Below are positions 137-62,761 of a DNA stretch of 64,000 bases, one piece after another (the stretch's first letter is position 1; each line of letters begins with the position of its first letter). The position numbers and the translations under genes were made by a program. The notes beneath the pieces are model-generated. The model saw only the letters and a list, made by a program, of their open reading frames with translations, made no database searches and had not been told where the DNA came from. The stretch comes from a virus. The stretch covers positions 32,001 through 96,000 of IMG/VR virus record IMGVR_UViG_3300029922_000013; one strand, written 5' to 3'.

Positions 137-1006
137 CTAATCCTTCCACTTAGAAATAATGTCAGGAATAATTCTAGTGTAGAATTCATTTTCTGCCCAC
201 ATCATAGCTTCTTCCATAAATTTGTTAGCTTTGTAACCAGGATGTATAAACTTGTCCTTTGGGGCTACTCCTGTTTCAGGATTCACAATGGGACTTTCCG
301 AAGCAGTTCTAAACGTCATGAATGAGCGTGTTACTTTTACTTTACCTTTTTTATTAAGCTTAGCGTTACCTGCAGAGTCTTTATCTATCGCTTGATAAAT
401 TCTCATTCTTTCTAGTGGATCACTTGACCATTTGTGACTGGATTTACCACCCTTGAAATCAAATTCGTGCAGCAGCCCTTCTTTAGGATTACCGTTTTTA
501 TCTCTTTCAACTCCGGCCCACGGCACCGTTTCTAAGCCATTAGCTTTTCTACGTTTATTCATTGCTTTGAGTTCAAATCTAACGCGATCTGTTAGGCCTT
601 TTTCATAGCCAGTTTGAAGGCTCGGTTTCTTAGAGTGTTCAAAGGGAATTACTAGATAACGACCATTTTTGCCGTGTTTTGTGCTTTTAGAAGAAAACAA
701 CCAAGCATCTGTTTTCATATCAGTATTAGGGGGTATACCTTCTTCAATCCAATAGGCAGATCCAGACAAAGTGACGACGCTAGTGTTGGAATCTAGATGA
801 TCCACTCTAAGATTTTGCTCATTATCTTTTCCACGGAATACTAATTGCAAACTAGGACTTAATTTTTTTTGAGCAAGTTCTATTATATGTTGTTTAGTAG
901 CATTAGCCAAATCTCTAACGCTTTTAGAAAGTTCTTTTTTAACTTTTTCTTGTTCGCTTTTGCAAACTTCAAGAACATCTTTAGGATCAAGTTTGAGCTT
1001 AAGCAT
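137..1006 (-). CDS. Putative neck/tail-completion virion protein
   Basis: 289 aa; YLVIPFEH, FRTASE and FIHPG motifs recall myovirus neck-region proteins; lies in the neck operon. Confidence 0.5.
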   Translation of the reverse strand: MLKLKLDPKDVLEVCKSEQEKVKKELSKSVRDLANATKQHIIELAQKKLSPSLQLVFRGKDNEQNLRVDHLDSNTSVVTLSGSAYWIEEGIPPNTDMKTDAWLFSSKSTKHGKNGRYLVIPFEHSKKPSLQTGYEKGLTDRVRFELKAMNKRRKANGLETVPWAGVERDKNGNPKEGLLHEFDFKGGKSSHKWSSDPLERMRIYQAIDKDSAGNAKLNKKGKVKVTRSFMTFRTASESPIVNPETGVAPKDKFIHPGYKANKFMEEAMMWAENEFYTRIIPDIISKWKD

Positions 1007-1008
1007 AT

Positions 1009-1269
1009 TTAGCCTTTTACAGGCACTCCGCCAGGCCCCATAACGCGACCTTCTTTCATATCAATGAATCTAACCTTACCGTTAGGGTCGGTTATTTTTT
1101 TCTGACCTTTTGCGTTTACCCCACCTTCTGGTATAGGATCTTTAGCAATATGGGGAGTGCTCGCTGTAGTAGGTAGCTTTTTTATTGATCCGGCGCCAGT
1201 AGCTGAATTAGCTACCGGCTTTGAACTGTGGGGATTGAGCAGCACTCTCCGGGGCCGCTTCTTTTTCAT
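1009..1269 (-). CDS. Small basic ORF overlapping the end of the mCpol gene (own start or +1 frameshift extension)
   Basis: C-terminal ~65 aa (KKLPTT...GKVRFIDMKEGRV) fills the gap to the next gene exactly; nearest upstream ATG lies inside the mCpol gene. Confidence 0.5.
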   Translation of the reverse strand: MKKKRPRRVLLNPHSSKPVANSATGAGSIKKLPTTASTPHIAKDPIPEGGVNAKGQKKITDPNGKVRFIDMKEGRVMGPGGVPVKG

Positions 1270-2887
1270 GGGGATGCCCGCAATTAGGGCAAGCTTCATC
1301 ACTAGGCATTTCCTCAGAACCCGGTTGTTCTTCTGGATTTTCGCTTTGGCCTTCAATCTCGTTAACTTCTTGTTCAGTCTCTCCAGAATTATCTAATCCA
1401 GCCAATGAACAAAGTTCTATCATAGCTCTTAACATACTTATACACGCATCGTATAGTTCAGGTGCTTGATCTTTAGCTTTATCCAGGATCGCTTTCTGAG
1501 ACTTAAATCCTTCCAAAGCGTGACCAACCAATTGAGTCACCTTTTCTCGTTGAATATTGTCGGCATGTTGATCCAAACCACCTTGTAAAACTTCTGAAAG
1601 GTCCGGGTCAGATCCATTTGCATCTTCCTCACTTAAACCTAAGTCACCCTGTTTTTGATTATAGTCAGCTGGACGACTTGTACCATCTGGGTCCATATCT
1701 TGCAACATCTCTTGTTGATTATCTAAGTTAGCATCGAGTAAATCTGTTGTAGTTTTAGGCTGTCCGTCATCTATAATATCTTCAAAATCTTTAGAATTGT
1801 CAAGATTTTGATCCAGCAAATCTTCAGCAGAATCCCCATGTTGATCACAAGTGCAACTTGGACAATGCTGAGCTTCACCCATAGATTCTTGCTCGTAGTT
1901 TTCGGCTTCATCTGAAGTAGAATTTTCTATAGGAATGTCAGCCTGTGGTTGTAGTTGTTCAGTATCATTATATTTCAGATCGCTTGGCTTATCGCCTTGA
2001 GGTTGAGCCATACTTTGAGGAGCAGATCCTTCGGCTTGTCCACGATAATCTTTTGGAGCAGGTTTCTTGTCCATAGGTTCTCCATCTTTAGGGTCTGGCA
2101 TTTCTTCGTTCATTTTACGATCTGATTCCTGAACATCAGTTGAGACCGCTTCGAATGTTCTAGGTTGTGCGATGAGGTTTGGTTTTTTAATAGTAGGGGG
2201 AGTAGAGTCATTTGCTTGATAAGAATTGTCTCTCTGCTTTAAATCACTATTTTTGTAACCGGAATCGTAGCCGTGGTTGTTGTCTTGTTTAGGTGGCTCA
2301 GATTCGGTAGGCTCATTTTCATTAGAGTCCGAACCTTCAGGTAAGACTTGGCCCTGAGTATTCGGGCTGTCTGGAGCTTGATTTGCCAATCCTTCTTTTA
2401 CGGATTCAGGTTCGCCAGTGTCTTCTCCGCCACCTACAACGTCTGCGATTTTCTTTCTTTCTTCTTCATGAGGATCAGAAGCGTTCCCTACAGCATCGCT
2501 AATTTCTTGTTCAACAGAATCATCGTATTGTACAATTTGATCTTTCCCACGGGACTTGGCTGCCAACAGAGCCTTACCAGCTTGTGAAATAGTTTGCCCA
2601 TAACCAATGGACAGAGTCGCTTGAACCATATCGGCATAGTTTTGTCGAAGCTGTTCTAATAAATTTACGAAATCAGATGGTGCAACAAAGCTCCCCTCAT
2701 CTCCACCACCGCTTATCCATCGTCCACCATTAGCTTCCACGAATTCTTTAATCTGATTATTTCCAGCCGTAATAAGCTGAGAAACTTGAGATACTTGATC
2801 CAGATCATCAGAAAGAATGGCTCTAGCATGACGTTTGCCAATTCCATCGCCATCGAATGCAAATACTACTTGATTCTGATTATCCAT
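1208..2887 (-). CDS. mCpol (minimal CRISPR polymerase, Cas10-like palm) domain fused to a long acidic low-complexity region
   Basis: N-terminal ~125 aa has FAFDGDGIG, GGRWISGGGDEG and TLSIGYG...ALLAAKSRGKDQI; the rest is D/E/Q/P-rich with two CxxC motifs. Confidence 0.8.
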   Translation of the reverse strand: MDNQNQVVFAFDGDGIGKRHARAILSDDLDQVSQVSQLITAGNNQIKEFVEANGGRWISGGGDEGSFVAPSDFVNLLEQLRQNYADMVQATLSIGYGQTISQAGKALLAAKSRGKDQIVQYDDSVEQEISDAVGNASDPHEEERKKIADVVGGGEDTGEPESVKEGLANQAPDSPNTQGQVLPEGSDSNENEPTESEPPKQDNNHGYDSGYKNSDLKQRDNSYQANDSTPPTIKKPNLIAQPRTFEAVSTDVQESDRKMNEEMPDPKDGEPMDKKPAPKDYRGQAEGSAPQSMAQPQGDKPSDLKYNDTEQLQPQADIPIENSTSDEAENYEQESMGEAQHCPSCTCDQHGDSAEDLLDQNLDNSKDFEDIIDDGQPKTTTDLLDANLDNQQEMLQDMDPDGTSRPADYNQKQGDLGLSEEDANGSDPDLSEVLQGGLDQHADNIQREKVTQLVGHALEGFKSQKAILDKAKDQAPELYDACISMLRAMIELCSLAGLDNSGETEQEVNEIEGQSENPEEQPGSEEMPSDEACPNCGHPHEKEAAPESAAQSPQFKAGS

Positions 2888-3818
2888 TTTTATTACTCCT
2901 CAGAACTTCAAGCAACATTTCAATATTTTCAGAGTTCCATGATTTAGGAAAACTAACTTTAATACCGTCTTCAGTTTTCTTTAGAAAAACTTTCTTACCC
3001 ATATCTTGACCAAAACACATACAAGCACTTACGCCAGAATCATTAAAAATAACGCCATTGCAATCGGGACAATTGATCTGCTCACTTTTTACCATTTCAA
3101 TAGAAAATTCTTTTTTTGCAAGCTTCTTTTTTCTATTTTCTACGAACTCTGCCAACTGGAGAGATTTTTTTGTAGGCTCTAAAACGATTACGGTAGGCTT
3201 TGGAGCCTCTTTAGGTTTTGCCATTTCTTTGTGCTCTTCAGTTATTTTTTTATGTTCAGCAGACAATTGATTCAATTTAGCTAAAAATAATTGTTGAACA
3301 GCGTCTCTTTGCATGAGCTTGCCGTCTATAACTTTGTTGACTAAACTATGCAAATTCATACGTTCATCAATGATACGATTAATTTCTGCTTCTTTAGTAT
3401 GATCAACTTCTGTTTCTTTATCCAGATCTTCTACGTCATAAAGTTCTAGAATTGAAAGCAGCACAAGCCCCAAGCCTGGGATAGAACGGTGCAAGAAATC
3501 TGAAATTTTAACATTGTTTTGAAGTACTTGACCTGAAAAGCTATCGCGCTCATGCTTGGTCGTAGAAACGATGGTATCTTCTTTGCCGGGAATTCTAATT
3601 TCTTTAGTATCCCCAATTTGCATGGGAGACAATTCACGAATCAAAAGACTCAACAAAGCCTTAGGTACAATTTGAAGCCCTTGATATAGATCATTCGTAT
3701 CAGTGACAGTCCGAGTTCCTTGCTTGTAAATTTCGCTTTTAGACAAGTCATTCCCTAAGGATTCTAGAAAATCCTCGCCAAGCGTTTTAATAAGGAAGTA
3801 CTCGGCATTCTTTTTCAT
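2880..3818 (-). CDS. Hypothetical virion protein with C-terminal Zn-finger
   Basis: 312 aa; CPDC...CMC motif; LSKSE and MVKSE motifs; coupled to the mCpol gene. Confidence 0.6.
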   Translation of the reverse strand: MKKNAEYFLIKTLGEDFLESLGNDLSKSEIYKQGTRTVTDTNDLYQGLQIVPKALLSLLIRELSPMQIGDTKEIRIPGKEDTIVSTTKHERDSFSGQVLQNNVKISDFLHRSIPGLGLVLLSILELYDVEDLDKETEVDHTKEAEINRIIDERMNLHSLVNKVIDGKLMQRDAVQQLFLAKLNQLSAEHKKITEEHKEMAKPKEAPKPTVIVLEPTKKSLQLAEFVENRKKKLAKKEFSIEMVKSEQINCPDCNGVIFNDSGVSACMCFGQDMGKKVFLKKTEDGIKVSFPKSWNSENIEMLLEVLRSNKNG

Positions 3819-3821
3819 ATA

Positions 3822-4289
3822 TTAAGGGATCATGCTGCTGGTCATGGCGACAGCAACAGGTTGAATACTTGAGTTATCGTTAATCAAATAAACTAGTAAA
3901 CTAGAAGAACTAGAAATTACCCAATTAGAGTAGCCCCCTGCAAAGTAGGACCAGGAATTTGGCATACAAGGAAGACCCACTCTGCCAGAAGAATCGGTAG
4001 CGCCTGCAGCTAGCGCAGTCACGGTGCCGTCGGTACCAAAGGTGATAGCAGCGACGGTTCCAGAGTTGTTGTAGACAGCCAGGTTGCGTCCAGCATTAGG
4101 AAGAGGATAGGCAGACGAAGGATTGGTGGTATACCCGTTACCTACGCCTGGAACAGGAAGAGGAAGCAAATGACGGCCAACCTCAGCAGTTTTGTTAGCA
4201 CCCGCCGCATTGTTGTAAGTATTATTGGCTATGGCCCCAGTGTCTTGGGTGTCAAATCCTTGAATATTACGTTTTTTAATCTCAGCCAT
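3822..4289 (-). CDS. Hypothetical beta-rich virion protein
   Basis: 155 aa A/G/S/T/N-rich; AAGGA RBS; late motif 39 nt upstream. Confidence 0.6.
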   Translation of the reverse strand: MAEIKKRNIQGFDTQDTGAIANNTYNNAAGANKTAEVGRHLLPLPVPGVGNGYTTNPSSAYPLPNAGRNLAVYNNSGTVAAITFGTDGTVTALAAGATDSSGRVGLPCMPNSWSYFAGGYSNWVISSSSSLLVYLINDNSSIQPVAVAMTSSMIP

Positions 4290-4327
4290 GTTATTGTTTT
4301 CCTTATCTTTTTATCTAATCCTATAGG

Positions 4328-4336
4328 TAAAGATTA
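4328..4336 (-). promoter_or_regulatory. Putative late promoter element TAATCTTTA
   Basis: One of 8 correctly oriented YAATCTTTA copies upstream of gene starts. Confidence 0.6.
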
Positions 4337-4343
4337 CTCGTTA

Positions 4344-5339
4344 TTAGGTATCGTTTTCGACATCCAACATTTCTACGCGGATAACCGGTTGATTTATATT
4401 GACTTTGTCCATTGGTTCAGCCGTTTGCCTGATTTCCATATTCGGTTGGGGTGGTTTGTTGAGTTCATTACCCCGATTTATATTATGGTACAGGAACTCT
4501 CTAGTTACCTGGACAAACTCGGGCATCCGTTCCGATGACCTAACTCCATTTTGGGTAACATCAGTGATACGAACTTCTCTTAAAATTGAAGTTATGTAGT
4601 AAAAAGCCCTATAAAGGTATCTTACACTATACGTTCTTCCCTCACCCGTATCTGGATCAATACCAGGATTATTGCCCCCGTCAATCCAAGCGATATTTCC
4701 GTGATCCGAAATTTTATAGTCAATACCTTGAGTATAATAAACCCCTCTGGAGTCTATCAAAGGAGCGGCCATTTTTTTGATAGGAAACATCGGCACATTT
4801 TCTGAATTAAAAGAAAATTGAAGCAACTCTTTATTAACAACCAAGTCATCTGCTTGGGGATCACCGTGATACAGTCTATCACCAGGAGCTAGGTAAATCC
4901 TGTTGTTCGCAGCTATAGGAGCTGGTTCGCAACAGTCTTCTTCAGATGTGCCACTCTGCTCAGATAAACCACCTGGTATCGAAGGAGCTTGGTCATAAAA
5001 TCTAGGCAAAACAAGGTTTCCCGTGGAAGAGTCATGCAATCCACCTTCAGAAGGTCTTAGTTGATCTTTTTGATTGCTTGTCAATACAGCAGTGAATTTA
5101 CCTGCCAAAGTGTAAATATATCCGTTAGAAGTAATGACATCAACATCACCATTATTTCTGCGATAATCCCCTTTTTCATTCAATCCGATAGGGCTAATAT
5201 TTGCAACGTAATGCAAAAAAGTAGTTCCCAAACTTTGGACGAACATATCCAGTCTATTCAAGTCAAACGATTCTTGAATATAAGGTATAAACGGTGCAAT
5301 TACCGATATCTGTTCGCCGACAGGCTTTTTATTTGCCAC
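4344..5339 (-). CDS. Putative head-closure/neck protein
   Basis: ORF track 4344..5366; GTG at 5339 preferred; GIDYKI...W...GRTYSVRY pattern and position near the adaptor gene. Confidence 0.5.
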   Translation of the reverse strand: MANKKPVGEQISVIAPFIPYIQESFDLNRLDMFVQSLGTTFLHYVANISPIGLNEKGDYRRNNGDVDVITSNGYIYTLAGKFTAVLTSNQKDQLRPSEGGLHDSSTGNLVLPRFYDQAPSIPGGLSEQSGTSEEDCCEPAPIAANNRIYLAPGDRLYHGDPQADDLVVNKELLQFSFNSENVPMFPIKKMAAPLIDSRGVYYTQGIDYKISDHGNIAWIDGGNNPGIDPDTGEGRTYSVRYLYRAFYYITSILREVRITDVTQNGVRSSERMPEFVQVTREFLYHNINRGNELNKPPQPNMEIRQTAEPMDKVNINQPVIRVEMLDVENDT

Positions 5340-5523
5340 ATTTATCTTTCTTACAAAGTTCTGCAAGTTCTTTCAGGCCATCATCCGTATTCTTATGAAA
5401 CAGCGCCAGTCCTTTAATTATATCATCAACGAGCGTCTCTTTAGCTAACTCTTTGTTCTTCTTAAATAATTTAGAGTCAATGACATTGTTTTTTGGTTGA
5501 TCGCCAGAAGATTGGTTACTCAT
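5329..5523 (-). CDS. Hypothetical protein
   Basis: 64 aa, tightly packed in the operon, AGGTGA RBS. Confidence 0.6.
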   Translation of the reverse strand: MSNQSSGDQPKNNVIDSKLFKKNKELAKETLVDDIIKGLALFHKNTDDGLKELAELCKKDKCGK

Positions 5524-5524
5524 G

Positions 5525-6010
5525 TCATTTCACCTTTATTGCTTTAGAATTGCATGACAAAGCTTTTTCGGTAGTAGCTCCAGCCATTGCCCTAACAAAT
5601 TCCTTGGGAAAATTGATTTCCGGAATAAACAAAGAGTCTTCTCTCAAAATGCCGTTAACAGAAGCCAACTTGACATTATGCTTAGTAATCTGAAACTCAA
5701 CGTCTGCACCAGTCTGAATGCTATAGATATCGTGACCTGATTTACGAAGATCATCGGACAAAAAATGAGAGTGCTTGTCTACTAAGGCTTCTGTGTTGAA
5801 ATTTTCTGATTTACAAAGAACGGCCTGGAAGGCAGGAAACATTTTAGAAATAGTGTGTTTTACGATAGCAGGATGTGATCCTCCTGAAACAACTTTTCCA
5901 TTGACAATTCCCATCCAGAATCCACCTTTTGTGCGCACCAATTTCACGGGCTGACCATTTAGCATTCCAGCTTCTTCTACATTGTCGATATCTTCTGGTC
6001 GTAAATTCAT
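5525..6010 (-). CDS. Hypothetical (putative head-internal) protein
   Basis: 161 aa; GAGG RBS; central LCKSE motif. Confidence 0.65.
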   Translation of the reverse strand: MNLRPEDIDNVEEAGMLNGQPVKLVRTKGGFWMGIVNGKVVSGGSHPAIVKHTISKMFPAFQAVLCKSENFNTEALVDKHSHFLSDDLRKSGHDIYSIQTGADVEFQITKHNVKLASVNGILREDSLFIPEINFPKEFVRAMAGATTEKALSCNSKAIKVK

Positions 6011-6011
6011 A

Positions 6012-6965
6012 CTATTTTCCTCTTTTCAATTCAGGATTATCTTCTATATATCGTCTAAGATCGTCCCCATTAAGCAACGTAATTTTTTCACTCTTATTTA
6101 TTTCTTCGGCTTCTTTTTGAGCTTCCTTGCGATACTCCTCAAGAGCATCATGAATTTCTTGTAATACCGTAGGATGGGTGTCTCCAATCAGAGCGGCATG
6201 CTCGACAGCTTCATGCCTATATTCTTCAGCGTCAGTTTTCCATTTCCAGTCGCCAGTTTCTTTCAATTTTTCGTAGCAAGCAGCTGCGCGTGAAGCCCAA
6301 GTCCAAGCAGTGTCTTCTTGAATTTCAGCTAGAGTTTTTTCTGTTATATCTTTGGAGCCTTTTTTCAGATCTAGTTTAGAAGGCTTTTCTATATTAGGGG
6401 AGTAGGTTTCTAGAGTTTTAGGACCTTTTCGCAATTCTGCATTACTAAACTCAATACCTGCATCCTCGGCGGTCTTTGCTCCGGAAGCCTTTATTTTATC
6501 ATGAGTAGCCTTATCCACGCTAACATGAGCATTCCACTCATAATTTTCTTTGTGACCCAAATGATCAAACTTTTCGTGGTGCTCTTTCATTTTATCTGCA
6601 TATGCACCCTGCAAACTAATAGCATATACATCATTGCCATTACGATCTGTTAACATCTTAGGTTCTATCTTAGTTTGCTTTGGATCTGGTGGATTCATCT
6701 CAAGTGCTGAGGCAGTTTTATGGGCGTCTTCAGGCTTATCATTTTTTTTATCAAAAAACTTAATAGTAGCGTGGTAGTCAATACCATTATCTGGTCTCTT
6801 ATCTTTCCCATTTATTTTTACGGGATAGGCAAGTATAAAACCAGTTGAAGCGAGCTTGGCATATGCAGCTGGATCTTCAGCTTTTCTCAATGATTGAGAC
6901 TTGTCCATGTGAGCAATATCAGAGAGAGAATCGGAAAACATTCTTTTCCAAAGTTTATTTTTCAT
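6012..6965 (-). CDS. 2H phosphoesterase (Acb1-like anti-CBASS nuclease) domain plus C-terminal helical HEAVEH domain
   Basis: Two Hx[T/S] motifs about 80 aa apart (DYHATIKFF, WNAHVSV); ORF track 6012..6989, ATG at 6965 preferred. Confidence 0.7.
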   Translation of the reverse strand: MKNKLWKRMFSDSLSDIAHMDKSQSLRKAEDPAAYAKLASTGFILAYPVKINGKDKRPDNGIDYHATIKFFDKKNDKPEDAHKTASALEMNPPDPKQTKIEPKMLTDRNGNDVYAISLQGAYADKMKEHHEKFDHLGHKENYEWNAHVSVDKATHDKIKASGAKTAEDAGIEFSNAELRKGPKTLETYSPNIEKPSKLDLKKGSKDITEKTLAEIQEDTAWTWASRAAACYEKLKETGDWKWKTDAEEYRHEAVEHAALIGDTHPTVLQEIHDALEEYRKEAQKEAEEINKSEKITLLNGDDLRRYIEDNPELKRGK

Positions 6966-7680
6966 TGTGCCAATCCCCACTAGTAACATGTTCCGGCATC
7001 AGGCCAGCTTTTTGATCAGCGAAAACAGTCTGGGAAGGATTTTTTCTGTTATTCTCACCATGAGGTCCAAAGTTCACCCAGTTGTTTTGGCCAGCTGTTT
7101 CGGTGAATAAAGCTCGTTGAGCTGCGGGACTGTACATCTTTTTGTGTGTTAGATAGGCTTGATGTTCGCCAGTAGGACCAAAACCAGTTTTGCCGCCTTT
7201 GTGGTGTCCGTTAATATCGTGAACTATTCTGAATACATCATTTGCTAAAAGTTTTTGGCCACCGTGGTTGAACTCAGTTGGAGCCAGCATAGGATGATCA
7301 TTTGTTTGGTCTTTGCTGCCAAAGCCTTGGTCCGTAGGAAAATACCAAAGATGCTTATTGTTTTCCACATCGTGATGCATTTCTTTAGAATTTTTATAAG
7401 GATTTGCTTGTCCAGGCTTAATTCTTGATATCTTAAGACCTGAACCTAAGATGTCTTTGAACTGTTTCCCCGTTTCATGGGTCAAAGCACCATACGCAGA
7501 TTTTACATCTGGATGAGTTGGATCGTGCTTCATGCCCTCATAAGCATTTGCTATCGCTTTCCCATGCTCAGGATTTATTTTTACTTTTGGAGCTTCCGAC
7601 GATGACGTGGTGGTTGGCTCAGCTTTTTGAACTGAGTTATTTTCGCATAAAACTGCTAAAATACCACGATCCATTCCCAT
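6955..7680 (-). CDS. Uncharacterised phage domain with zincin-like VHDxxGH motif
   Basis: NDVFRIVHDINGH...FGPTGE...H..MYS...TETAGQNNWVNFGP; VQKAE near the N-terminus. Confidence 0.55.
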   Translation of the reverse strand: MGMDRGILAVLCENNSVQKAEPTTTSSSEAPKVKINPEHGKAIANAYEGMKHDPTHPDVKSAYGALTHETGKQFKDILGSGLKISRIKPGQANPYKNSKEMHHDVENNKHLWYFPTDQGFGSKDQTNDHPMLAPTEFNHGGQKLLANDVFRIVHDINGHHKGGKTGFGPTGEHQAYLTHKKMYSPAAQRALFTETAGQNNWVNFGPHGENNRKNPSQTVFADQKAGLMPEHVTSGDWHNEK

Positions 7681-7683
7681 ATG

Positions 7684-8538
7684 TTAATATTCACCAATCA
7701 CATATCTTCTAGCAAAGATACCTTTTATTCTTTGAATTAATTCGTCTCTATTTCTAGTAAGTTCTTCAATACGAAGTGCGAATCTACGAGGACCAAGAGA
7801 GCTGGAACTTTGGGAAATACCGTCTTGGGTTTGAGATTGAGATGTAGCAAAATATAGGACAGCTATTTGGGATAGCAAGTTGATGGCAGCGTTAGTTCCT
7901 ATTAATTGATTCACAATGATTGGCACCTGTCCTTCTCTATTAGATAAACCGGACGAGTAGGTCAGCTGCCAATAGGCGGGCACTTGCCCACAGTTGCCTT
8001 GGGCACCCCAGATAGCCAAAAATGCGATCCCGGCCCCTTGATTTGTAGCCGTGATTTGGGTTCCGCTCGCACTAGTAGCGCCAAAGGCTGCGAGCAAAGG
8101 CACCACATTGACTTGACCTATGCTAAAATTTGCCGTTGTTATCCACATACTCGGAACAGTAAAGATAACCTCGTCATTAGATGCAACGATAGAAAGATCT
8201 TCAACACTTATGATTGGGCCGTGGCGGGGCTTTAGATGTATAAAAGCCTTGTATAATGAGTAATCAAAAACTAACTGTTCTTTGAATTCTTCTCTTGTTA
8301 TAGTCGTATTTAACTGAGCCTCAGTTTCATTCATGGCCATCATGATACGATCTTTTAGCTCATCATCAGTAAATCTATCGCCATTAGGAAATACTAGCGG
8401 GATACCTTTTAGGTATCTGCTCCTAAATAACTCTGGCGTAAGGAATGGTTCAACACGAGCGAGCAACCCACTCGTTTGGGAGGCATGCACCGGGTACATG
8501 CTTGTCTGAAAAGTGCGGGACCTTGAGAAATCAGCCAT
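7684..8538 (-). CDS. Head-tail adaptor/neck protein (SPO1/Twort-like)
   Basis: C-terminal SQSQTQDGISQS...FALRI motif typical of this adaptor family; 284 aa. Confidence 0.65.
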   Translation of the reverse strand: MADFSRSRTFQTSMYPVHASQTSGLLARVEPFLTPELFRSRYLKGIPLVFPNGDRFTDDELKDRIMMAMNETEAQLNTTITREEFKEQLVFDYSLYKAFIHLKPRHGPIISVEDLSIVASNDEVIFTVPSMWITTANFSIGQVNVVPLLAAFGATSASGTQITATNQGAGIAFLAIWGAQGNCGQVPAYWQLTYSSGLSNREGQVPIIVNQLIGTNAAINLLSQIAVLYFATSQSQTQDGISQSSSSLGPRRFALRIEELTRNRDELIQRIKGIFARRYVIGEY

Positions 8539-9502
8539 TTTTTTGCTCCAAAAATTCTAGGCATCTTTTGATGCAGTCTTGTTTGTCTTTTGACCATTCC
8601 TCTTCTTTAATATGAAGAATCTTAATTCCTTTAGATAAGAAGTGCGCGTCTTTAATTTGATGGTAATTTACCAGATCTTCTTTTGGCCAATCTTTGCGAG
8701 AACGACTCAAGCCTTTTACGCTATGCCAGTACTTCCCATCCATTTCTATTCCTAAATTACTTTTGTCAATAAAGATGTCAATGTCAAACCCTTTGATGTG
8801 CGGCTTTCCTTCAATTTTAACATTTACATCCCTTATTTTCCTAGCAGTTGGAATTGTAGATGTAATTGCGTCAAAAAGTTCTTGCTCACACCTAGATACG
8901 CCACCTGAACGCTTCATGTGCCCACACATTTTTGGCAAAATATTTTTTCTTTTACCGGCTCTATAAGCACTCGGACTGCTATTTTTAAATTCACTTCTCG
9001 TGTTATATTTTAAAGCTTCTGCGTAAAGATCGGCATCTGTCCAGTCTGTTCTAATGAGTCTGATCATATGTCCACAAATAAGATCCATCATATTTCTTTT
9101 TAATGCGAGGTCATAGGCTTTACGGCTGTAGTTTTCAAAATCTTTTCTGGTACCGTATTTCAAAGCTTCTTGATGCAATTGTAGATTTGTCCATTCTCTG
9201 CGTTTAAGATCCATGTGATTACAAATAACGTCTAACATCTCTCTTTTTAAAGCAATTTGATAAGCATTAAAACTATTTTTTTGAAACTCTCCTCTGGAAG
9301 TATATTTTTTAGCTTCATTTTTAAGAGCATCGAGAGGCCAAGAATAATGTTTAATTATCATATGGGTGCATATACTATCTAAAATGCCCATATTACGTGC
9401 GGCCTGATAAGCTCCTGAGCTGTGCTCGAAGAATTCGGTCCTGGTGCTATATTTTTTAGCCTCAGTATTTAAATTTTTGAATGACCATTTTTTAGTCTTC
9501 AT
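8531..9502 (-). CDS. Putative homing endonuclease (tandem ~50 aa repeats plus Vsr/DUF559-like nuclease)
   Basis: Four W...EAxKYxxRxxF...AY..A......IC.HM repeats; C-terminal DIDIF...IEMDGKYWH...KD...GIKILHI. Confidence 0.75.
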   Translation of the reverse strand: MKTKKWSFKNLNTEAKKYSTRTEFFEHSSGAYQAARNMGILDSICTHMIIKHYSWPLDALKNEAKKYTSRGEFQKNSFNAYQIALKREMLDVICNHMDLKRREWTNLQLHQEALKYGTRKDFENYSRKAYDLALKRNMMDLICGHMIRLIRTDWTDADLYAEALKYNTRSEFKNSSPSAYRAGKRKNILPKMCGHMKRSGGVSRCEQELFDAITSTIPTARKIRDVNVKIEGKPHIKGFDIDIFIDKSNLGIEMDGKYWHSVKGLSRSRKDWPKEDLVNYHQIKDAHFLSKGIKILHIKEEEWSKDKQDCIKRCLEFLEQKNG

Positions 9503-10032: not shown

Positions 10033-10041
10033 TAAAGATTG
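10033..10041 (-). promoter_or_regulatory. Putative late promoter element CAATCTTTA
   Basis: Oriented toward the neck operon. Confidence 0.6.
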
Positions 10042-11227: not shown

Positions 11228-13066
11228 TTAGGTAGTTACAACCACATCGTCGAGTGTAACCGCTGTTTGAGCATATAGAGATCCGTGTACTGTGCTAGTA
11301 GTTTGGCAAGCGATGTTGGTGGCTGCCAATATAACGCCTCTGGCTACGCTGCTTACACCGAATGTGACGCTTCCAGCTACAGCCCAGAATACATTAGATG
11401 CTTGTGCTCCACCAGTAAGAACTATTTGAGCAGACGACGCCATATTTAGAGTGCTCGACAGTTGGAAAATCCAAACATCATTAACTCCGCCGTTCAATGT
11501 AAGATTACCAGTGATGGAAGTTGGAACAGTGAGTTTGTACAAACCAGGAACTAGAGTCAGACCACCCAAGGCCCCAGCACCAGGATTGGTAGCCGTTGGC
11601 ATTGTACGACCTTGAGCGTCTGTATATGCCGCACCCATTGCTGAAATGGCACTAGTCAGATTAGCTGGAGTCGGTGCGCTATAGTCTGCAGCATAGATAT
11701 CGCCAGTCACATTTGGAGCGGTAGAGAATTCTCCGCTTCCATCAAGAGTTAGAGTAAAACCGGTAATTGCCGTATGCGCAATTGGGGATACGCCCATATT
11801 CCCAGTGATTTCAGATCCCGAAGTGTCGCTAATACCAGATTCCGTGAGTATTCTGTATGTAGCTGCAGCTCCAAGATTGACAGCAGCAGGTCCAAGTGCC
11901 GTAATAGTGTAGGCTGCAGATCCAATATTAGAGTTAGAAAGACCGGCATGAGTTGCCAATACTTTTACGGTTTCACTTTGATTTACAGAAATAGGCCCCG
12001 TATAAAGAGTCGATCCCGTGGTAGGAGTACTTCCGTTTGTTGTATAGTAGAACGTTGCTCCAGTCGTAAGAGAGCTAATCGTAATCGATTGGGTTCCAGC
12101 GTAAGTTCCAGCAACTGGTGAAAAAGTTGGAGTTGCAACTTGGGAACCCCCAATAATATAAGCTGCAGACGCCACTGTAGAATTTGCAGAACCGGCTTTT
12201 ACGGCTATTGCATTGATTGGCTCGCTTGCACTTACAGTAATAGGCCCCGTATAAAGAGTACTTCCAGCCGTTGGAGTTGATCCATTAGTCGTATAGTAAA
12301 TGGCTGCTCCAGAAGTAATGGAGGTGATGGTCACTGATTGGGTTGTAGCATAAGTACCGGCCACTGGAGAAAAAACTGGAACAGCAACTGTACTAATAGT
12401 GGGAGTTGGAGAAATGGTAACGGTAGAACCACTTACAGTGGTGCTGGCGGCTGCAAGAGCAGCTAGAGCCGTATTAGTCTTAGTAGCAACTTGAGCAGCA
12501 GTGTCACTGCTGAGGATAGTCACTTCAATGCCAGTAAAACCAATTGGGGCTGGATTTGTATTAGTTCCACCAGAAACATTATACCAAACATCGTACGCAT
12601 TAGTATTTCCAGCAGTGTAAACTACGAAATAAGCACCTGGTCCAAAGTTTGGAAAGGTACTTCCTGCTGTAAACGTTGTTACAGCCATAAGCTGTTGAGC
12701 AGGTCCAACGTAAGAAGGCGCAACGCTAAATCCAACAGGCATAGAAACATTTGATGGAGGAAGTGGAAAAGTGTTAGGCGATGGAGGCAGACTAGACAAG
12801 ATTTGAGCTAACATCGCTGGATTACTAGTAAGATCGAATCCGTCCGTGATAACTTGAAGATCTGCCTGAGACAAAGTGTATTGACCTAAAATAGCGGCTT
12901 GAAAATGAGCGGCTACGGTTGCACTACAAAGAGCAACAACCAGTCTATTATAAGTAAAAGGCGAAAGGACCAAACTATTGGTGATCGCGTTAGCCAGCTC
13001 ATTACCAGCAAATACGCTTGTTAGAGCATCTTGAAGATAGATGATAGTGTTATTAGGTAGGGCCAT
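11228..13066 (-). CDS. DUF3494 ice-binding-like protein with two chitobiase-C (Fn3-like) repeats
   Basis: C-terminal AVNLGAAATYRIL...ITGNMGVSP...AYTDAQGR...TLVPGLY...VWIFQ...GGAQASNVFW...QTAVTLD; two PxFSPxxGTY...YYTTNGSTPT repeats; no signal peptide. Confidence 0.85.
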   Translation of the reverse strand: MALPNNTIIYLQDALTSVFAGNELANAITNSLVLSPFTYNRLVVALCSATVAAHFQAAILGQYTLSQADLQVITDGFDLTSNPAMLAQILSSLPPSPNTFPLPPSNVSMPVGFSVAPSYVGPAQQLMAVTTFTAGSTFPNFGPGAYFVVYTAGNTNAYDVWYNVSGGTNTNPAPIGFTGIEVTILSSDTAAQVATKTNTALAALAAASTTVSGSTVTISPTPTISTVAVPVFSPVAGTYATTQSVTITSITSGAAIYYTTNGSTPTAGSTLYTGPITVSASEPINAIAVKAGSANSTVASAAYIIGGSQVATPTFSPVAGTYAGTQSITISSLTTGATFYYTTNGSTPTTGSTLYTGPISVNQSETVKVLATHAGLSNSNIGSAAYTITALGPAAVNLGAAATYRILTESGISDTSGSEITGNMGVSPIAHTAITGFTLTLDGSGEFSTAPNVTGDIYAADYSAPTPANLTSAISAMGAAYTDAQGRTMPTATNPGAGALGGLTLVPGLYKLTVPTSITGNLTLNGGVNDVWIFQLSSTLNMASSAQIVLTGGAQASNVFWAVAGSVTFGVSSVARGVILAATNIACQTTSTVHGSLYAQTAVTLDDVVVTT

Positions 13067-16780: not shown

Positions 16781-16809
16781 TTGACAAATAGCAATCTTCA
16801 CTATATGCT
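16781..16809 (+). promoter_or_regulatory. Sigma70-type promoter, leaderless
   Basis: TTGACA-17-TATGCT, 7 nt before ATG 16817. Confidence 0.7.
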
Positions 16810-16816
16810 ATTAAAC

Positions 16817-18370
16817 ATGAAGACAGCAAATTGTAAAAATTGTAAAAAAGAATTTGAATATAAATGGACAGGCAGAGGAAATTCTTGTTCGAAAGAGTGC
16901 ACAGCTGTCATCGTTGCTAAAAGTAAATTAAAATATTCCGATGAACAAATAGAACTGGTTGTTTTCTTAAAAAAAGAAGGTAGAACTAATAAAGACATCG
17001 TCACTTTAAGTGGAGTTAAACTCAGTAAAGTAAAAGAAATTATTAAGAATAATAATGTTCTGCTTACTCCAGAAGAACGTCAAAAGCATGCTTATGAAGC
17101 GAAAATAGCAAAGGACCCGCTAGCCATGGAACGCATGAGATCTAGTAGGACTGAAGAATCTTTTGAAAGAGCTGCTAAAACTAGAACCAAAACTTTGTCA
17201 GATCCAAAATATTTTAATATTTTTTCTACAAACGCCAAAAATGTATGGATCGACTTTCGCGACAATCCTGCTAAATATAAAAAGCGCGTAAATAAACAAT
17301 CTGTCTCCCAAAGAGAGACCAAGCTTGGGATGTCTTTGGAGAAATACGAAGAACTGTTGCTTATAATTAAGAAAGAAGTAGAAGATAAAAAAGAAACAAT
17401 CACATCTGCATCACAAAAATATGAAATATCCTTTATAACTACGCTCCGACAGTTTCATAAACGTGGCTGGGGTGATCTCGTTTCTAGTTTTGTCTCCAAA
17501 GCCCAACTGGATATCTATAACTATGTAAAAAGTATTACCGATAAAACTATACTTTTGAATGACAGAACCGCTCTTAGAGGAACAGAACTAGATGTTTATG
17601 TTCCAGAATTAAGATTTGGTATAGAGTTCAACGGATTGTATTGGCATTCTTCCGGATCGGATCAATTCAAGAAGATGTCTCACGTCAAAAAAATACAAAA
17701 ATGCCTAGACAATAACGTTAGCCTATTGGCTATTTATGAAGACGAATGGAAAAATGAGGCAAAACAAGAACTGATCAAGAAAATGATCGCTTATCGTCTT
17801 AAAGTGTTAAAACCAAAAACATTGAGTCCTAGAAAACTTGAATTGAGACTGCTTCCCTCTAATTCGCAGTTTAAAGGTTTCTTCGAAAAACATCATATCG
17901 ATGGACACTCAAACGCTTCCTTTGCCTATGGTTTTTTTAAGGGAGAGGAATTGATATTTTGTGCTTCTTTTAGAACGAATTTTAACAAGGAATTAGAAAT
18001 CGCCAGACTTGCGTCTAATTATGATTACTCAGTCCCAGGTGCTCTTGGAAAAATTCTTAAGAAGATAAATCAACCTATCGTAAGCTATTCCAATAATCGT
18101 TTATCTCATGGAAATATTTACGTTCAAAATGGCTTTGTAGAAATAACCAAAAGTCATCAACCCTCCTATTGGTACACAGACCTTAAAACTAGAGTTTGGC
18201 GCTTTAAATGTAAAAGGAACAATGATCCAGTTATTATTGCTCAATTCCCTACTGAACAAACCCAAGCTGAAAATGGAGTATTTAGTCAAAAACTCTTTGG
18301 AGATGACAGACCTTTATTTAGAATTGAAGACTATGGTCACAGAAAATGGCTTTGGAATCCTAGCACTTAG
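16817..18370 (+). CDS. Hef-like homing endonuclease with C-terminal GNAT-like region
   Basis: ELDVYVPELRFGIEFNGLYWHS...IYEDEW nuclease core; FFEKHHIDG...EIARLA...GNIY...GF...PSYWY tail; N-terminal CxxC/CSxxC. Confidence 0.75.
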   Translation: MKTANCKNCKKEFEYKWTGRGNSCSKECTAVIVAKSKLKYSDEQIELVVFLKKEGRTNKDIVTLSGVKLSKVKEIIKNNNVLLTPEERQKHAYEAKIAKDPLAMERMRSSRTEESFERAAKTRTKTLSDPKYFNIFSTNAKNVWIDFRDNPAKYKKRVNKQSVSQRETKLGMSLEKYEELLLIIKKEVEDKKETITSASQKYEISFITTLRQFHKRGWGDLVSSFVSKAQLDIYNYVKSITDKTILLNDRTALRGTELDVYVPELRFGIEFNGLYWHSSGSDQFKKMSHVKKIQKCLDNNVSLLAIYEDEWKNEAKQELIKKMIAYRLKVLKPKTLSPRKLELRLLPSNSQFKGFFEKHHIDGHSNASFAYGFFKGEELIFCASFRTNFNKELEIARLASNYDYSVPGALGKILKKINQPIVSYSNNRLSHGNIYVQNGFVEITKSHQPSYWYTDLKTRVWRFKCKRNNDPVIIAQFPTEQTQAENGVFSQKLFGDDRPLFRIEDYGHRKWLWNPST

Positions 18371-25419: not shown

Positions 25420-25736
25420 TACCATGGTGTCCGCATCGAGCAGTAAAACATGTGGTCCCATTCGAAAGAGGAGAACTTCGCTCCACATTCACATTTAAAA
25501 TCAGATCCAAAAAGTTCTTCGAAACTAACCATATCAACATAAAAGTGAGGATCATAACTAGGAATTTGGGATAGTATTAGAACGTAATCGCTAAAGCCTG
25601 CAGGATCTGTAGTATAGAAGGACCATTCCCATTTTTTATTGTTGTAGCTGAGAGCTTTAGGGAAATCCATTAGTTCTTTCCACCAGTTGATCTGTTTTTG
25701 TGGTCCTTCAGATCCAAAATGTATAGTTATTTTCAT
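25419..25736 (-). CDS. Hypothetical protein with C-terminal Zn-binding motif
   Basis: CECG...H..YC. Confidence 0.6.
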   Translation of the reverse strand: MKITIHFGSEGPQKQINWWKELMDFPKALSYNNKKWEWSFYTTDPAGFSDYVLILSQIPSYDPHFYVDMVSFEELFGSDFKCECGAKFSSFEWDHMFYCSMRTPW

Positions 25737-25750
25737 TGTTTTTTCTATAC

Positions 25751-25759
25751 CAATCTTTA
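25751..25759 (+). promoter_or_regulatory. Putative late promoter element CAATCTTTA
   Basis: 42 nt before the endolysin ATG. Confidence 0.6.
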
Positions 25760-25800
25760 TATAGGTTATAGTGATAAAGCAAGAAAGTCAAGAGGTTTAT

Positions 25801-26355
25801 ATGGCAGGATCTATTTGGAGTGATTTGGGTAAATTATTGTTGAGCTTTTTAGTTAACAAAACTAATGAAAGTGCTCCTGTGGAGACTAAAGCTCCAGAAC
25901 CAACTGAAAAGCAAGAAGTCGATTGGACAAATCCTGATTGTAAAGTGTCAAAATATTTTACAGTCAAAGAAATGATCTACTTACCAACCTGGAAACGAAT
26001 GGCCAATGAAACGGATGGACTAAACGATCAAATCAAAGAAAATCTCATTAATTTAGCCATGGACATGGATATAGTTCGCGATTATTTCGACAAACCAATC
26101 AATGTTCATGTTACCTACAGACCGCTAGAGTACAATAAGGCTATTGGTGGAGCTTTACACTCAGCCCACAGCGAAGGTGAAGCCATGGATTTTGATATTG
26201 TGGGTATGACTTGCGATGAAGTCAGAGAAGAGCTGGTAAGTAAGAATTTACTCGACAAATGGGGCATGAGATGCGAAAAAGCTCCAGGAAGCAATTGGGT
26301 TCATTTAGATTACAGACAGCTTGCCGCAGGTGGGAATAGGTATTTTATCCCTTAA
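25801..26355 (+). CDS. Endolysin, peptidase M15 family
   Basis: SKYFT, YR...N...GGA..SAH..GEAMDF, WVHLD motifs; GAGG RBS before ATG 25801. Confidence 0.8.
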   Translation: MAGSIWSDLGKLLLSFLVNKTNESAPVETKAPEPTEKQEVDWTNPDCKVSKYFTVKEMIYLPTWKRMANETDGLNDQIKENLINLAMDMDIVRDYFDKPINVHVTYRPLEYNKAIGGALHSAHSEGEAMDFDIVGMTCDEVREELVSKNLLDKWGMRCEKAPGSNWVHLDYRQLAAGGNRYFIP

Positions 26356-26558
26356 GGTTTGCCACAGATACAGTCGTAATCTTGTTTATCGTATTTAATA
26401 AATAATTTTAGACATGGAGCATCGGAATATAATTTAGGACATCTGCTAGAGCATGTATTGATAACTTCTTTGTCATGATCGTTCCAAGGATAGTTGGTTC
26501 TGTTGATTAAAGATGGATTCGGACAGGCCAACGATAAGAATATCAAAAATTCTGCCAT
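26352..26558 (-). CDS. Small Cys-rich, possibly exported protein
   Basis: 68 aa; hydrophobic N-terminus ending LAC; six Cys. Confidence 0.55.
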   Translation of the reverse strand: MAEFLIFLSLACPNPSLINRTNYPWNDHDKEVINTCSSRCPKLYSDAPCLKLFIKYDKQDYDCICGKP

Positions 26559-26563
26559 AAATA

Positions 26564-27640
26564 CTATTTTTTCTCTTTTTTCTCAACAAAACTATCCATA
26601 TCGCTGCCAACCATCATTTTAGCAAGCTTCTTTTCAGCTTTCATGGATTTGTTTAAACAAAGAACTTGCCCAATAGCCGCGATTTCGCCCTTGGCTAGGT
26701 GTGGCATAGTTTTTGACATATAAGTTTCAAAAGCTTCTCTCTTACCCCAAGCTTTATATTCTTGTTCTGCTCGTTGAAGGAGTGTGGACTTCTTCATCTT
26801 CTTATCTAAAGCTTCTTTTCCCAAGGCAGCTCCACCAACCATATTACCTGGGGCAGTCATTCCTGAGCCTGCAGTCATCGCTTTTTTCATTGATTCGCCT
26901 TTACCGATTTCACCTTGAATAGCTTTAGGAGCTACAGGTCCGAATTTAGGGGAACTAGCCACAGCCATTCTATGGTTCTTTGTTCCTGATTTTCTAGCAG
27001 CTATCGGACGATTTTTGGGGGAACCCACTAGATAAGATGGCTGACCGCCTCTTTGGGCATCCGAAGGGAATTTTTTGCCTGGATTTTGACCTTTAGAAAG
27101 AAGTTCAATAGTAAAAGAAGGCTCAGATTTAAAAATGGAATCTGAGTCAGTTTTTTCAGGATCTGCTGGGATCATTTCGGCGACACAAGTTTTATTTGCC
27201 GGGATATTAGTCAAAGTTATCTTACGAGCCACCGATTTGGTAACTATTAGACCAACCTTATCTATCTTGGAACCCTCGATAGAGAAGCCAACCATCGGTT
27301 GTTCATCTGGATGCTCAGCATCATCCATAAAAAGAGCGGCAACTTCTCTTGAAGAGTCTTTTTTATCATCGAACAAGCGTCCCATTACATACAAAAAGGG
27401 AGTCTTGCATTTTTCCCAATAATATGCGTGCCTGTCATTTTCACAATCTTTATCCGAGAATATTTTTTTATATTCGAGAATTTTACCGCAAATTTGGGAA
27501 GGAAGTTTTGATTCATGCTCGTAATTAAAAGCAGCACCAACCAATGAGGAGCAGTCAATCCCCGCTAGATCAACGATTTCGCCAGCAGTATCAATTGCTT
27601 GACTTGAACCAATTCCATCAATATAAGTGCAGTTAGCCAT
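26564..27640 (-). CDS. Prohead (capsid maturation) protease
   Basis: D..GE...GID, NYEH, GFSIEG, LT..PAN motifs; C-terminal tail rich in K[SAG] sites. Confidence 0.8.
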   Translation of the reverse strand: MANCTYIDGIGSSQAIDTAGEIVDLAGIDCSSLVGAAFNYEHESKLPSQICGKILEYKKIFSDKDCENDRHAYYWEKCKTPFLYVMGRLFDDKKDSSREVAALFMDDAEHPDEQPMVGFSIEGSKIDKVGLIVTKSVARKITLTNIPANKTCVAEMIPADPEKTDSDSIFKSEPSFTIELLSKGQNPGKKFPSDAQRGGQPSYLVGSPKNRPIAARKSGTKNHRMAVASSPKFGPVAPKAIQGEIGKGESMKKAMTAGSGMTAPGNMVGGAALGKEALDKKMKKSTLLQRAEQEYKAWGKREAFETYMSKTMPHLAKGEIAAIGQVLCLNKSMKAEKKLAKMMVGSDMDSFVEKKEKK

Positions 27641-27700: not shown

Positions 27701-28720
27701 TTAAATAGTTGCGGTACTTTTTAAAAAATCCAAACATCTTTGAAAACATTTCCCTTTATTTTTTAAAAAGTCTTTTTCTTTAATATGAAGTATTTTGATA
27801 CCTATAGATTTGAAGTAAGAATCCTTAATTTCATGGTATTTTTTAATATCCTTATCTGGCCAATGAGGTTTAGATCTTTTCAATCCACGAAAGGAATGAT
27901 GGTAGGTTCCGTCAAATTCCACTCCTAATTTGAGTTCTGGTATATAAATATCGATGTCTAGACCATAAATGTGAGGTTTATTTAATATATTTATATTTCT
28001 TTTTCTTAGCTTCGTCGAAGTTGGATAGTATTCTTTTATAAAAGAAGCTAATTCTTTTTCTGGACGAGATTCAGACGATCTTATGGGCATGTGGACACAA
28101 ATTTCATCCATTATTCCCATTCTAAATGCAGCTTTGTAAGCACCAAGATCGTTTTTTTCAAAATCACTTCTAAAAATATATTTTTTAGCAACTTCGTTTA
28201 TTTTTTTATAATTCCAACTATTATAACCTTCTGTCATATGTTCGCAGATTTTATTTAAAATACCTCTTTTATCGGCTGCTGAATAAGCTGCCGGATTTGC
28301 ATTTAAAAAATCTTTTTTACTGTTGTATTTGTTAGCTTCTTCTTGCAATTTTTCTAGAGACCATCTAAAATTAGGGTTGTTCTCACCATTGAAATTTTGA
28401 ATTTTCATATGGGAGCAAACTTTTTGTAGGATGCCAAACTTTTTAGCAGCCTTATATGCCCCATAAGCATGTTTTATAAAATTACTTTTTATATGATATT
28501 TCAGTGCTTCTGTCAAAATTTTTTCTTCATTCCATTTAAAACGAGGATTGTTTTCCCCAGCCATACCCACACGTTTTGGCATGTGGGAACAAACTTGTTC
28601 CATTACGTTAAGTCGTTTCGCAGCTTGATAAGCTGCATAATTGCCTCTCATCAATTTACTTCTGGTAGTGTATTTGTTAGCTTCTTCTTGCAATTTTTCT
28701 AGAGACCATTTGCTTTTCAT
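27701..28720 (-). CDS. Putative homing endonuclease, paralogue of 8531..9502
   Basis: Four EAxKY...AY..A...C.HM repeats, two GENNP motifs, DIDIYIPE...VEFDGTYHHS. Confidence 0.75.
   Translation of the reverse strand: MKSKWSLEKLQEEANKYTTRSKLMRGNYAAYQAAKRLNVMEQVCSHMPKRVGMAGENNPRFKWNEEKILTEALKYHIKSNFIKHAYGAYKAAKKFGILQKVCSHMKIQNFNGENNPNFRWSLEKLQEEANKYNSKKDFLNANPAAYSAADKRGILNKICEHMTEGYNSWNYKKINEVAKKYIFRSDFEKNDLGAYKAAFRMGIMDEICVHMPIRSSESRPEKELASFIKEYYPTSTKLRKRNINILNKPHIYGLDIDIYIPELKLGVEFDGTYHHSFRGLKRSKPHWPDKDIKKYHEIKDSYFKSIGIKILHIKEKDFLKNKGKCFQRCLDFLKSTATI
28324..28709. repeat. 41-nt perfect direct repeat (28324-28364 and 28669-28709)
   Basis: tgtatttgttagcttcttcttgcaatttttctagagaccat occurs twice, encoding WSLEKLQEEANKY. 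Confidence 0.9.
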
Positions 28721-62752: not shown

Positions 62753-62761
62753 TAAAGATTG
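62753..62761 (-). promoter_or_regulatory. Putative late promoter element CAATCTTTA
   Basis: 28 nt before the tail-fibre ATG. Confidence 0.6.

Follow-up and report, generated by a model that had tools for sequence, protein, structure and literature searches.

An mCpol nucleotide cyclase and a 2H phosphoesterase as candidate enzyme cargoes in the late virion operon of an uncultured relative of Myxococcus phage Mx1

In the literature searched, mCpol is known only as the guard synthase of bacterial Panoptes defence, and 2H phosphoesterases are enzymes that viruses use against immune nucleotides, as with Acb1, PDE-9, VP3 and the poxvirus cyclic GMP-AMP (cGAMP) phosphodiesterase (PDE; bioRxiv 10.1101/2025.08.21.671373). 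Here we describe an intact mCpol on a virion-operon carrier protein, and a 2H protein encoded in the same operon, in a 64,000-nucleotide stretch of DNA from an uncultured 151-kb phage. This whole stretch (hereafter the window) covers bases 32001-96000 of the 150,858-bp IMG/VR virus record IMGVR_UViG_3300029922_000013, which is estimated to be 91% complete. The phage is a relative of Myxococcus phage Mx1, its only cultured relative (portal ~41% and capsid protein 53% identical), which was published as a genome announcement; searches of the region and of the mCpol and 2H proteins against 50,697 phage records (megablast, tblastn) gave no match. Our preferred reading, to which we give about an even chance, is that mCpol and 2H are separate, independently inherited enzyme "cargo" proteins of the Mx1-like myophage virion module and not a matched pair.

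The Panoptes synthase, OptS/mCpol (PF18182; PDB 9mnr, 9pd0, 9nwn), is a stand-alone enzyme of ~125 amino acids (aa), encoded in a bacterial defence island in an operon with an S-2TM-beta, CARF-TM or SAVED-TM effector. The window's protein has the same minimal Cas10-like palm, with equivalents of the catalytic residues Asp6 and Asp57, but it is phage-encoded, is fused to a carrier of ~430 aa, is transcribed with virion genes and has a recoded 3' end. Its neighbours are conserved virion-module genes; neither the effector operon nor the stand-alone architecture of Panoptes is found here. Phage-encoded mCpol receives no mention in the Panoptes and type II papers (PMC12657218, PMC12657230, PMC13577387), and none was found in full-text literature searches.

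The closest known kind is the packaged polyvalent proteins of Iyer et al. 2017 (PMC5512222), predicted to be carried in the capsid, with 2H domains that counter nucleotide signalling and rare GGDEF domains as makers of phage signals. Like those proteins, in which 2H is MuF- or portal-fused and whose prototypes are T4 Alt and P1 DarB/DdrB, the two enzymes are encoded among the late structural genes of portal-terminase phages, have polymorphic partner domains (here SLT, GNAT and ParB-like) and have a predicted delivery with the DNA onto host nucleotide signalling. They differ in that the cyclase is mCpol rather than GGDEF and that they are separate mid-sized proteins rather than one giant polypeptide; a frameshifted-tail carrier and a KAE leader are likewise absent from that description.

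The mCpol gene and its catalytic domain lie as follows:
1208..2887, minus strand: mCpol-carrier gene, short form, 559 aa, with an mCpol head (Pfam PF18182), an acidic linker and a helical hairpin
2525..2863, minus strand: mCpol palm domain, residues 9-121, with D12-G-D14 and G61-G62-D63-E64, placed by Pfam and alignment

Residues 9-121 match Pfam mCpol over profile positions 2-114 of 114 (E 1.1e-17; 64.9 bits against a cut-off of 26.4, and 68.9 bits in the whole-genome scan), and the 559-aa open reading frame (ORF) also matches the solved mCpol/OptS chains 9nwn and 9mnr (E 1e-6 and 2e-6). D12 and D63 align with Asp6 and Asp57 of KpOptS. Eight residues (D12, D14, G17, G61, G62, D63, K111 and G114) are invariant in 40 homologs, and the D12/D14 and G61-G62-D63 motifs are invariant or at least 90% conserved. 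These results confirm the palm with intact motifs that had been noticed in a preliminary description of the window, made from the sequence alone. The enzyme looks catalytically competent, and the chemistry expected of such a head is the synthesis of a cyclic di- or oligonucleotide from nucleoside triphosphates (NTPs).

The head has 45 homologs at 43-77% identity, an identical 559-aa protein occurs on 7 independently assembled contigs, and the head profile finds 1493 cluster representatives, mostly of 300-990 aa with the domain at the N-terminus. Where enough downstream sequence is available, the head is present in 67 of 72 loci, in the same place each time. An intact mCpol is near-universal and vertically inherited in this very large family of uncultured Mx1-like phages, which implies that such phages routinely make Cas10-type nucleotides. 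In Mx1 itself the head is degenerate, with SIDHLEG in place of DGDGIG and GAVG in place of GGDE; the heads of loci L046 and L105/106/110 are degenerate too. Mx1 also encodes a separate 243-aa GGDEF-like "nucleotide cyclase" (WNM70324.1; L002:17173-17904) with the motifs NGGDEF and DMNDFGQIN; it directly follows a 1239-aa prohead protease, and has no homolog in the window's phage. One virion-module cyclase may here have functionally taken over from another.

The preliminary description correctly placed the mCpol and 2H genes 3.1 kb apart on the same strand, and proposed a candidate counter-defence module. In this model, the 2H enzyme would erase the alarm nucleotides of the cyclic-oligonucleotide-based antiphage signalling system (CBASS) or, in a wider form, of type III CRISPR, and mCpol would supply a decoy that keeps a Panoptes-type guard effector off. 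Co-occurrence in relatives does not bear out such a module. Among 53 distinct related loci with both flanks, drawn without bias, 27 have both genes, 22 have mCpol only, one has 2H only and three have neither (Fisher p=0.33, no association). With falling identity of the seed gene, the frequency of 2H goes from 5/6 and 15/18 to 8/17 and 0/12 while that of mCpol stays at 6/6, 15/18, 16/17 and 12/12. The two genes thus occur together through descent within the one sub-clade to which 2H is confined. Mx1, with a dead mCpol on a kept carrier, has no 2H. The mCpol and 2H genes are neighbours by descent, with no sign of partnership.

Some of what is known of these enzymes would nevertheless suit a decoy and an eraser. 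The active sites appear intact, making both activities plausible; Panoptes is set off by Acb1-type 2H enzymes, and its effector is kept inactive by mCpol products (PMC12657218, PMC12657230); substrate range varies sharply among phage 2H enzymes, with the Panoptes nucleotide spared by some (Doherty et al. 2025); and the sparing of 2',3'-c-di-AMP by some phage 2H enzymes shows selection on this axis (bioRxiv 10.1101/2025.08.21.671373). The 27 loci with both genes could be added to this list, but the association is no more than shared ancestry would give. Furthermore, mCpol belongs to the near-universal core of a very broad family, unlike accessory anti-defence genes; the carrier is kept both in Mx1, where mCpol is dead, and in some lineages without mCpol; and an Acb2-type sponge (PF13876) was not found in the whole phage record. 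We consider the counter-defence module quite improbable. The same holds for its most far-reaching form, a particle that carries both "writer" and "eraser", with the injected 2H enzyme destroying CBASS or type III CRISPR alarms and mCpol making a Panoptes-silencing nucleotide. If true, such a phage would defeat a guard system by counterfeiting its all-clear signal. A decoy-plus-eraser use is possible, and the computed evidence does not favour it over other uses of a phage-made nucleotide.

The preliminary description also saw no cognate effector in the window, and this was borne out for Panoptes and CBASS effectors across the 151-kb record: neither a Cap15-type receptor nor a SAVED domain (PF18153, PF18145) was matched, in searches that had no positive control, and neither GGDEF nor RtcB was found. 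An S-2TM-beta or CARF-TM effector was likewise not found near mCpol or in the genome by the PF18153/PF18145 searches, with the same lack of a positive control. These results also bear on a further explanation, that synthase and phosphodiesterase are the writer and eraser of a signal of the phage's own (for lysis timing, superinfection exclusion or host take-over), with 2H turning over the mCpol product. Their presence within one operon would suit this, and in Mx1, where mCpol is dead, the GGDEF-like cyclase encoded separately in the head module gives a hint that some cyclase is needed in this lineage. However, 2H is absent from half of the mCpol phages, and no CARF, SAVED or Cap15-type sensor was detected in the genome (the latter two being the searches without a positive control). 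We regard a private signal of this kind as very improbable.

The 2H protein is composed of these parts:
6012..6965, minus strand: 2H phosphoesterase, a putative cargo protein of 317 aa counted from M9, with a leader, a 2H domain and a three-helix C-terminal domain
6876..6965, minus strand: N-terminal leader, residues 1-30, ending K28-A-E30 and followed by D-P (K28, E30 and P32 at least 90% conserved)
6390..6845, minus strand: 2H domain, residues 41-192, with HxT at 6765-6773 and HxS at 6519-6527
6078..6350, minus strand: C-terminal helical bundle, with SLT or GNAT in its place in relatives

The ORF runs from 6012 to 6989 on the minus strand, and M9, at 6965, is likely its true start. The product follows the plan of a 30-aa leader, a 2H domain, a disordered linker and a helical bundle of ~90 aa. 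Its motifs are H65-A-T67 and H147-V-S149, of which H65, H147 and S149 are invariant in 40 homologs. The AlphaFold2 model has a predicted local distance difference test (pLDDT) score of 84.7 overall and of 89-98 across the domain. For residues ~41-192, the 28 best Foldseek matches and the VIA matches are all 2H enzymes (VIA Z 8.4-9.3 over ~135-140 residues), led over residues 41-192 by 1jh6 (plant cyclic phosphodiesterase, CPDase; Z 9.3), 4ye2 (rotavirus VP3; 9.2) and 5ldm (E. coli LigT; 8.9); Usb1, AKAP18 and phage BCSR5 PDE-9 are further matches. The two Hx[T/S] motifs of the preliminary description thus sit on a true 2H fold, and the enzyme looks catalytically competent from its conserved residues. 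The helical C-terminal domain matches unrelated helical bundles.

The label "Acb1-like", which the preliminary description had also applied, is too specific. The Acb1 structures 7t27 and 7t26 rank only 24th and 26th in Foldseek (E 0.03-0.04), where LigT-like, Usb1 and PDE-9 structures reach E 2e-3, and so do not justify it; Acb1 entries rank 39-48 in BFVD, and there is no sequence match to Acb1. No Pfam or PHROG family matches the protein, and a profile of the 40 homologs matches nothing among all PDB sequences. The protein represents a new sequence family within the 2H superfamily, and these rankings do not place it nearer to Acb1 than to LigT, VP3 or plant CPDase. The 2H fold and two Hx[T/S] motifs are common to T4/FBB1 Acb1 (7t26, 7t27), BCSR5 PDE-9 (9q2g), rotavirus VP3 and the poxvirus cGAMP PDE; relative to these viral enzymes, the protein described here has a leader, an extra C-terminal domain, a location in a structural operon and no sequence-level match to a solved 2H. 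Acb1 in particular is a single domain of ~150 aa with a C-terminal lid, in contrast to the multi-part 317-aa protein. Among the nearest structural matches from viruses are 2H-bearing actinophage proteins labelled "capsid morphogenesis" and "structural".

With LigT, Usb1 and CPDase among the top structural matches and an RNA ligase encoded in the genome, the 2H protein might alternatively heal or process RNA ends in the manner of LigT or Usb1, unrelated to nucleotide signalling. That ligase, however, adjoins its own Pnkp gene (kinase plus HAD phosphatase) at genome positions 131336-133400 (L128:1456-3574), 93 kb from the 2H gene, and the two form a self-contained RNA repair cassette of the T4 type, which makes an RNA-repair role for 2H less likely. 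Furthermore, the 2H gene lies in the late structural operon and its product has a leader, and phage 2H domains of this kind were never associated with RNA ligases (Iyer et al. 2017, PMC5512222). An RNA-end enzyme is therefore, in our judgment, distinctly unlikely.

The 2H gene occupies a variable slot between two conserved genes, which it shares with a second protein:
7684..8538, minus strand: conserved structural gene, upstream bound of the slot (phrog_772; its homolog is the 281-aa protein of Mx1)
6955..7680, minus strand: second slot protein, 241 aa, with a leader ending KAE, then a phrog_3170 domain
5525..6010, minus strand: conserved gene, downstream bound of the slot (its homolog is the 103-aa protein of Mx1)

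The slot measures 0.66-2.7 kb and holds one to three ORFs, which here are the 241-aa and 2H proteins and in Mx1 are a 1479-aa NUDIX protein and a 619-aa kinase. Across 64 homologs, 2H leaders range from 0 to 28 aa and end in K[AGKS]E|[DN]P, and the leader of the 241-aa slot protein recurs almost letter for letter on the 2H homologs P0049 and P0050. The C-termini of 2H are polymorphic: Pfam SLT (lytic transglycosylase) is found in 6 of 40, an ES.GG motif in about half of the 64, and GNAT in one. The 241-aa protein has a conserved phrog_3170 domain with a VHDxxGH motif that is fused behind 2H in some relatives (one 408-aa ORF in L006), and a search of the ESM Atlas with it returned only unnamed viral clusters.

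T4 internal proteins and Alt have an N-terminal capsid-targeting sequence that the gp21 prohead protease cuts off after Glu. The leaders described here resemble these in being short, in being common to unrelated cargo proteins and in ending in Glu before the mature domain; they share no sequence similarity with the T4 leader. With a leader found on other slot proteins too and interchangeable C-terminal domains, the 2H protein is a testable candidate for a capsid-targeting system outside T4.

Behind the mCpol head, the carrier consists of an acidic low-complexity linker of ~300 aa, which contains conserved short motifs and two Cys knuckles, and then a helical hairpin. In the AlphaFold2 model of its C-terminus, a helical hairpin predicted with confidence is accompanied by a disordered stretch and a beta-hairpin. 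The corresponding features are:
1397..1570, minus strand: helical-hairpin "carrier" domain, ~residues 440-497, from alignments and AlphaFold2 of homolog L007 (helices at pLDDT 82-95)
1226..1233, minus strand: candidate +1 (or -2) ribosomal shift site CC CCA CAG, five codons before the stop
1009..1207, minus strand: conserved C-terminal tail peptide of ~65 aa in the +1 frame, a predicted beta-hairpin, with no start codon after the mCpol stop

The frame of the tail peptide varies among 38 loci, being in frame in 9 (with Mx1 also in frame), +1 in 9 and -1 in 20. The -1 loci have overlaps of 16-91 nucleotides, usually without a start codon, and in 19 of these 20 an in-frame heptamer C CCA AAR, A AAA AAG or A AAA AAA lies within the overlap. 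In all 8 of the +1 loci examined, the window's phage included, CC CCA CAG/CAA stands just ahead of the stop. Sequencing error behind the +1 frame was ruled out, because 7 contigs agree on the identical 559-aa product and the arrangement recurs in 8 other loci. We read these signals as programmed frameshifting that would give a short and a long form of the carrier. Similar start-less downstream ORFs with conserved slippery sites occur in lambda G/GT, in T7 10A/10B and at dnaX-type sites (A AAA AAG, C CCA AAG); the gene family here is another, and three solutions (in frame, -1 and +1/-2) are found within the mCpol-carrier family. A fourth route is the separate 66-aa ORF in the lineage of L088 (11736-11936) and L090, whose carriers lack mCpol and whose tail-peptide ATG overlaps the upstream stop; together with an internal ATG at 1269 in the window, it is a caveat on the frameshift reading.

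Two isoforms at a fixed ratio are typical of virion and assembly proteins, which suits a virion cargo. Alternatively, the carrier might be mainly a structural or assembly protein (of the neck, scaffold-like or connector-associated), with the palm as a nucleotide- or DNA-binding or oligomerising module and catalysis secondary. The frameshift-set isoforms, the fixed position in the head-to-tail operon and the fate of the carrier core would fit this: the helical hairpin and tail peptide are retained where mCpol is dead (Mx1, L046, L105/106/110), and the hairpin and C-terminal peptide are retained in five loci without mCpol (L058/61/64/88/90), where a Cys-rich or basic N-terminus takes its place. 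More distant carriers have inserted ParB-like or GNAT domains, which, like the persistence of the core, also fits the cargo reading. On the other hand, dozens of lineages, some as distant as ~35% identity, keep the catalytic Asp and GGD[EQ] residues unchanged or almost so, a pattern that points to selection on enzyme activity. We consider a mainly structural carrier unlikely.

Returning to the two enzymes as separate virion cargoes, the analysis shows the identity of the domains and the conservation of their catalytic residues, the synteny of the loci, the recoding signals, a variable slot and leaders common to different proteins, with no receptor or effector gene found; packaging, proteolytic maturation, delivery, products and substrates are inferred. 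The mCpol protein would be made late, from the head-to-tail operon, with its palm tethered through the long acidic linker to the conserved helical hairpin. Ribosomes shifting at CC CCA CAG would add the beta-hairpin peptide of ~65 aa, and the C-terminal part of the carrier may hold the protein within or on the particle. An active cyclase would thus be available at entry, or otherwise at a late stage of infection, to turn NTPs into a cyclic di- or oligonucleotide. As for 2H, its leader ending KAE|DP would be a capsid-targeting propeptide removed by the prohead protease, as in T4 internal proteins, and its domain would act in the newly infected cell, hydrolysing phosphodiesters of the 2',3'-cyclic, 2'-5' or cyclic-oligonucleotide kind; in relatives the 2H domain is joined to an SLT domain, which cuts peptidoglycan. 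The delivery of both from the virion that the preliminary description suggested is plausible in view of three indirect pieces of evidence: the cleavable-looking shared leader, the SLT fusions and a carrier that frameshifting would produce in two lengths.

Several observations weigh against the two proteins being virion cargoes. PHROGs return nothing for either the mCpol or the 2H protein, and Pfam gives no structural annotation for them; the mCpol protein has no N-terminal leader; and late expression by itself is also what one would expect of enzymes whose action is confined to the late infected cell. Against the PDB, the model of the carrier C-terminus returns only noise in Foldseek (best E 2.9), and from an internal ATG at 1269, the gene caller's choice, the tail peptide could be translated separately as an 86-aa product. 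The idea that KAE marks prohead-protease sites in general was rejected, with 17 sites genome-wide against ~16 expected, and the KAE of the capsid protein is not conserved in Mx1. Only the leader-specific KAE observation is kept, because the genome-wide count is that of chance and the capsid KAE is not conserved.

Two genes downstream of the mCpol carrier, a 379-aa protein (genome 29839-30978, L047:11940-13079, minus strand) has KAE at 178, 262 and 323, and could be a multiply processed virion protein.

The operon runs on the minus strand from 9984 to 137 and then on to the tail sheath outside the window, gene-for-gene colinear with the capsid-to-sheath block of Mx1. The late structural location given in the preliminary description is therefore supported. 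One fixed gene order holds in 42 loci seeded on mCpol and in 80 IMG/VR loci seeded on the structural gene 4344-5366, the latter set being without bias toward mCpol or 2H; overall, the arrangement is kept in about 100 IMG/VR loci. Its remaining features are:
10033..10040, minus strand: AATCTTTA, late-promoter-like motif upstream of the operon's first gene
4328-4335, minus strand: second copy of AATCTTTA, upstream of gene 3822-4289
2880..5366, minus strand: between the slot and the mCpol gene, three conserved genes of the structural module (340, 155 and 312 aa), in strict synteny across ~100 loci
137..1006, minus strand: conserved gene after the mCpol carrier, 289 aa (Mx1 homolog 292 aa), by synteny and colinear with Mx1

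The 340-aa structural-module protein has a weak match to a "virion structural protein" PHROG. AATCTTTA fits the "late motif" of the preliminary description: it precedes the operon's first gene, gene 3822-4289 and other late genes by 20-45 nucleotides. Its count across the window (12 against 7.2 expected) is not significant, and it is the intergenic, co-oriented placement that is the notable feature.

Elsewhere, the window encodes a major capsid protein, large terminase and portal (the genes for capsid protein, terminase and portal lying at 15-23 kb), a GroEL-like chaperonin, Pol III alpha and SbcCD-like proteins. The phage-encoded chaperonin is of the GroEL/Cpn60 type, with 588 aa (28781-30547, minus strand). 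Homing-endonuclease genes of one paralogous group (phrog_20046/3339, MTES_1575-type nuclease), at least four of them, are interspersed between structural genes, at window positions 8531-9502, 16781-18370 and 27701-28720 and at genome positions 25511-26569, with one of them within the mCpol/2H operon.

Finally, two further proteins are associated with the late-promoter-like motif. The first, of 612 aa (11228-13066, minus strand), combines a complete ice-binding-like DUF3494 domain (E 6e-65) with a pair of chitobiase-C/Fn3-associated repeats; its gene has a AATCTTTA motif of its own, and display of the protein on the virion is probable. The second is a C1q-domain protein of 1008 aa (59699-62725, minus strand), likely a receptor-binding fibre, with a local G+C of 48% against ~39% and a AATCTTTA motif upstream at 62753.

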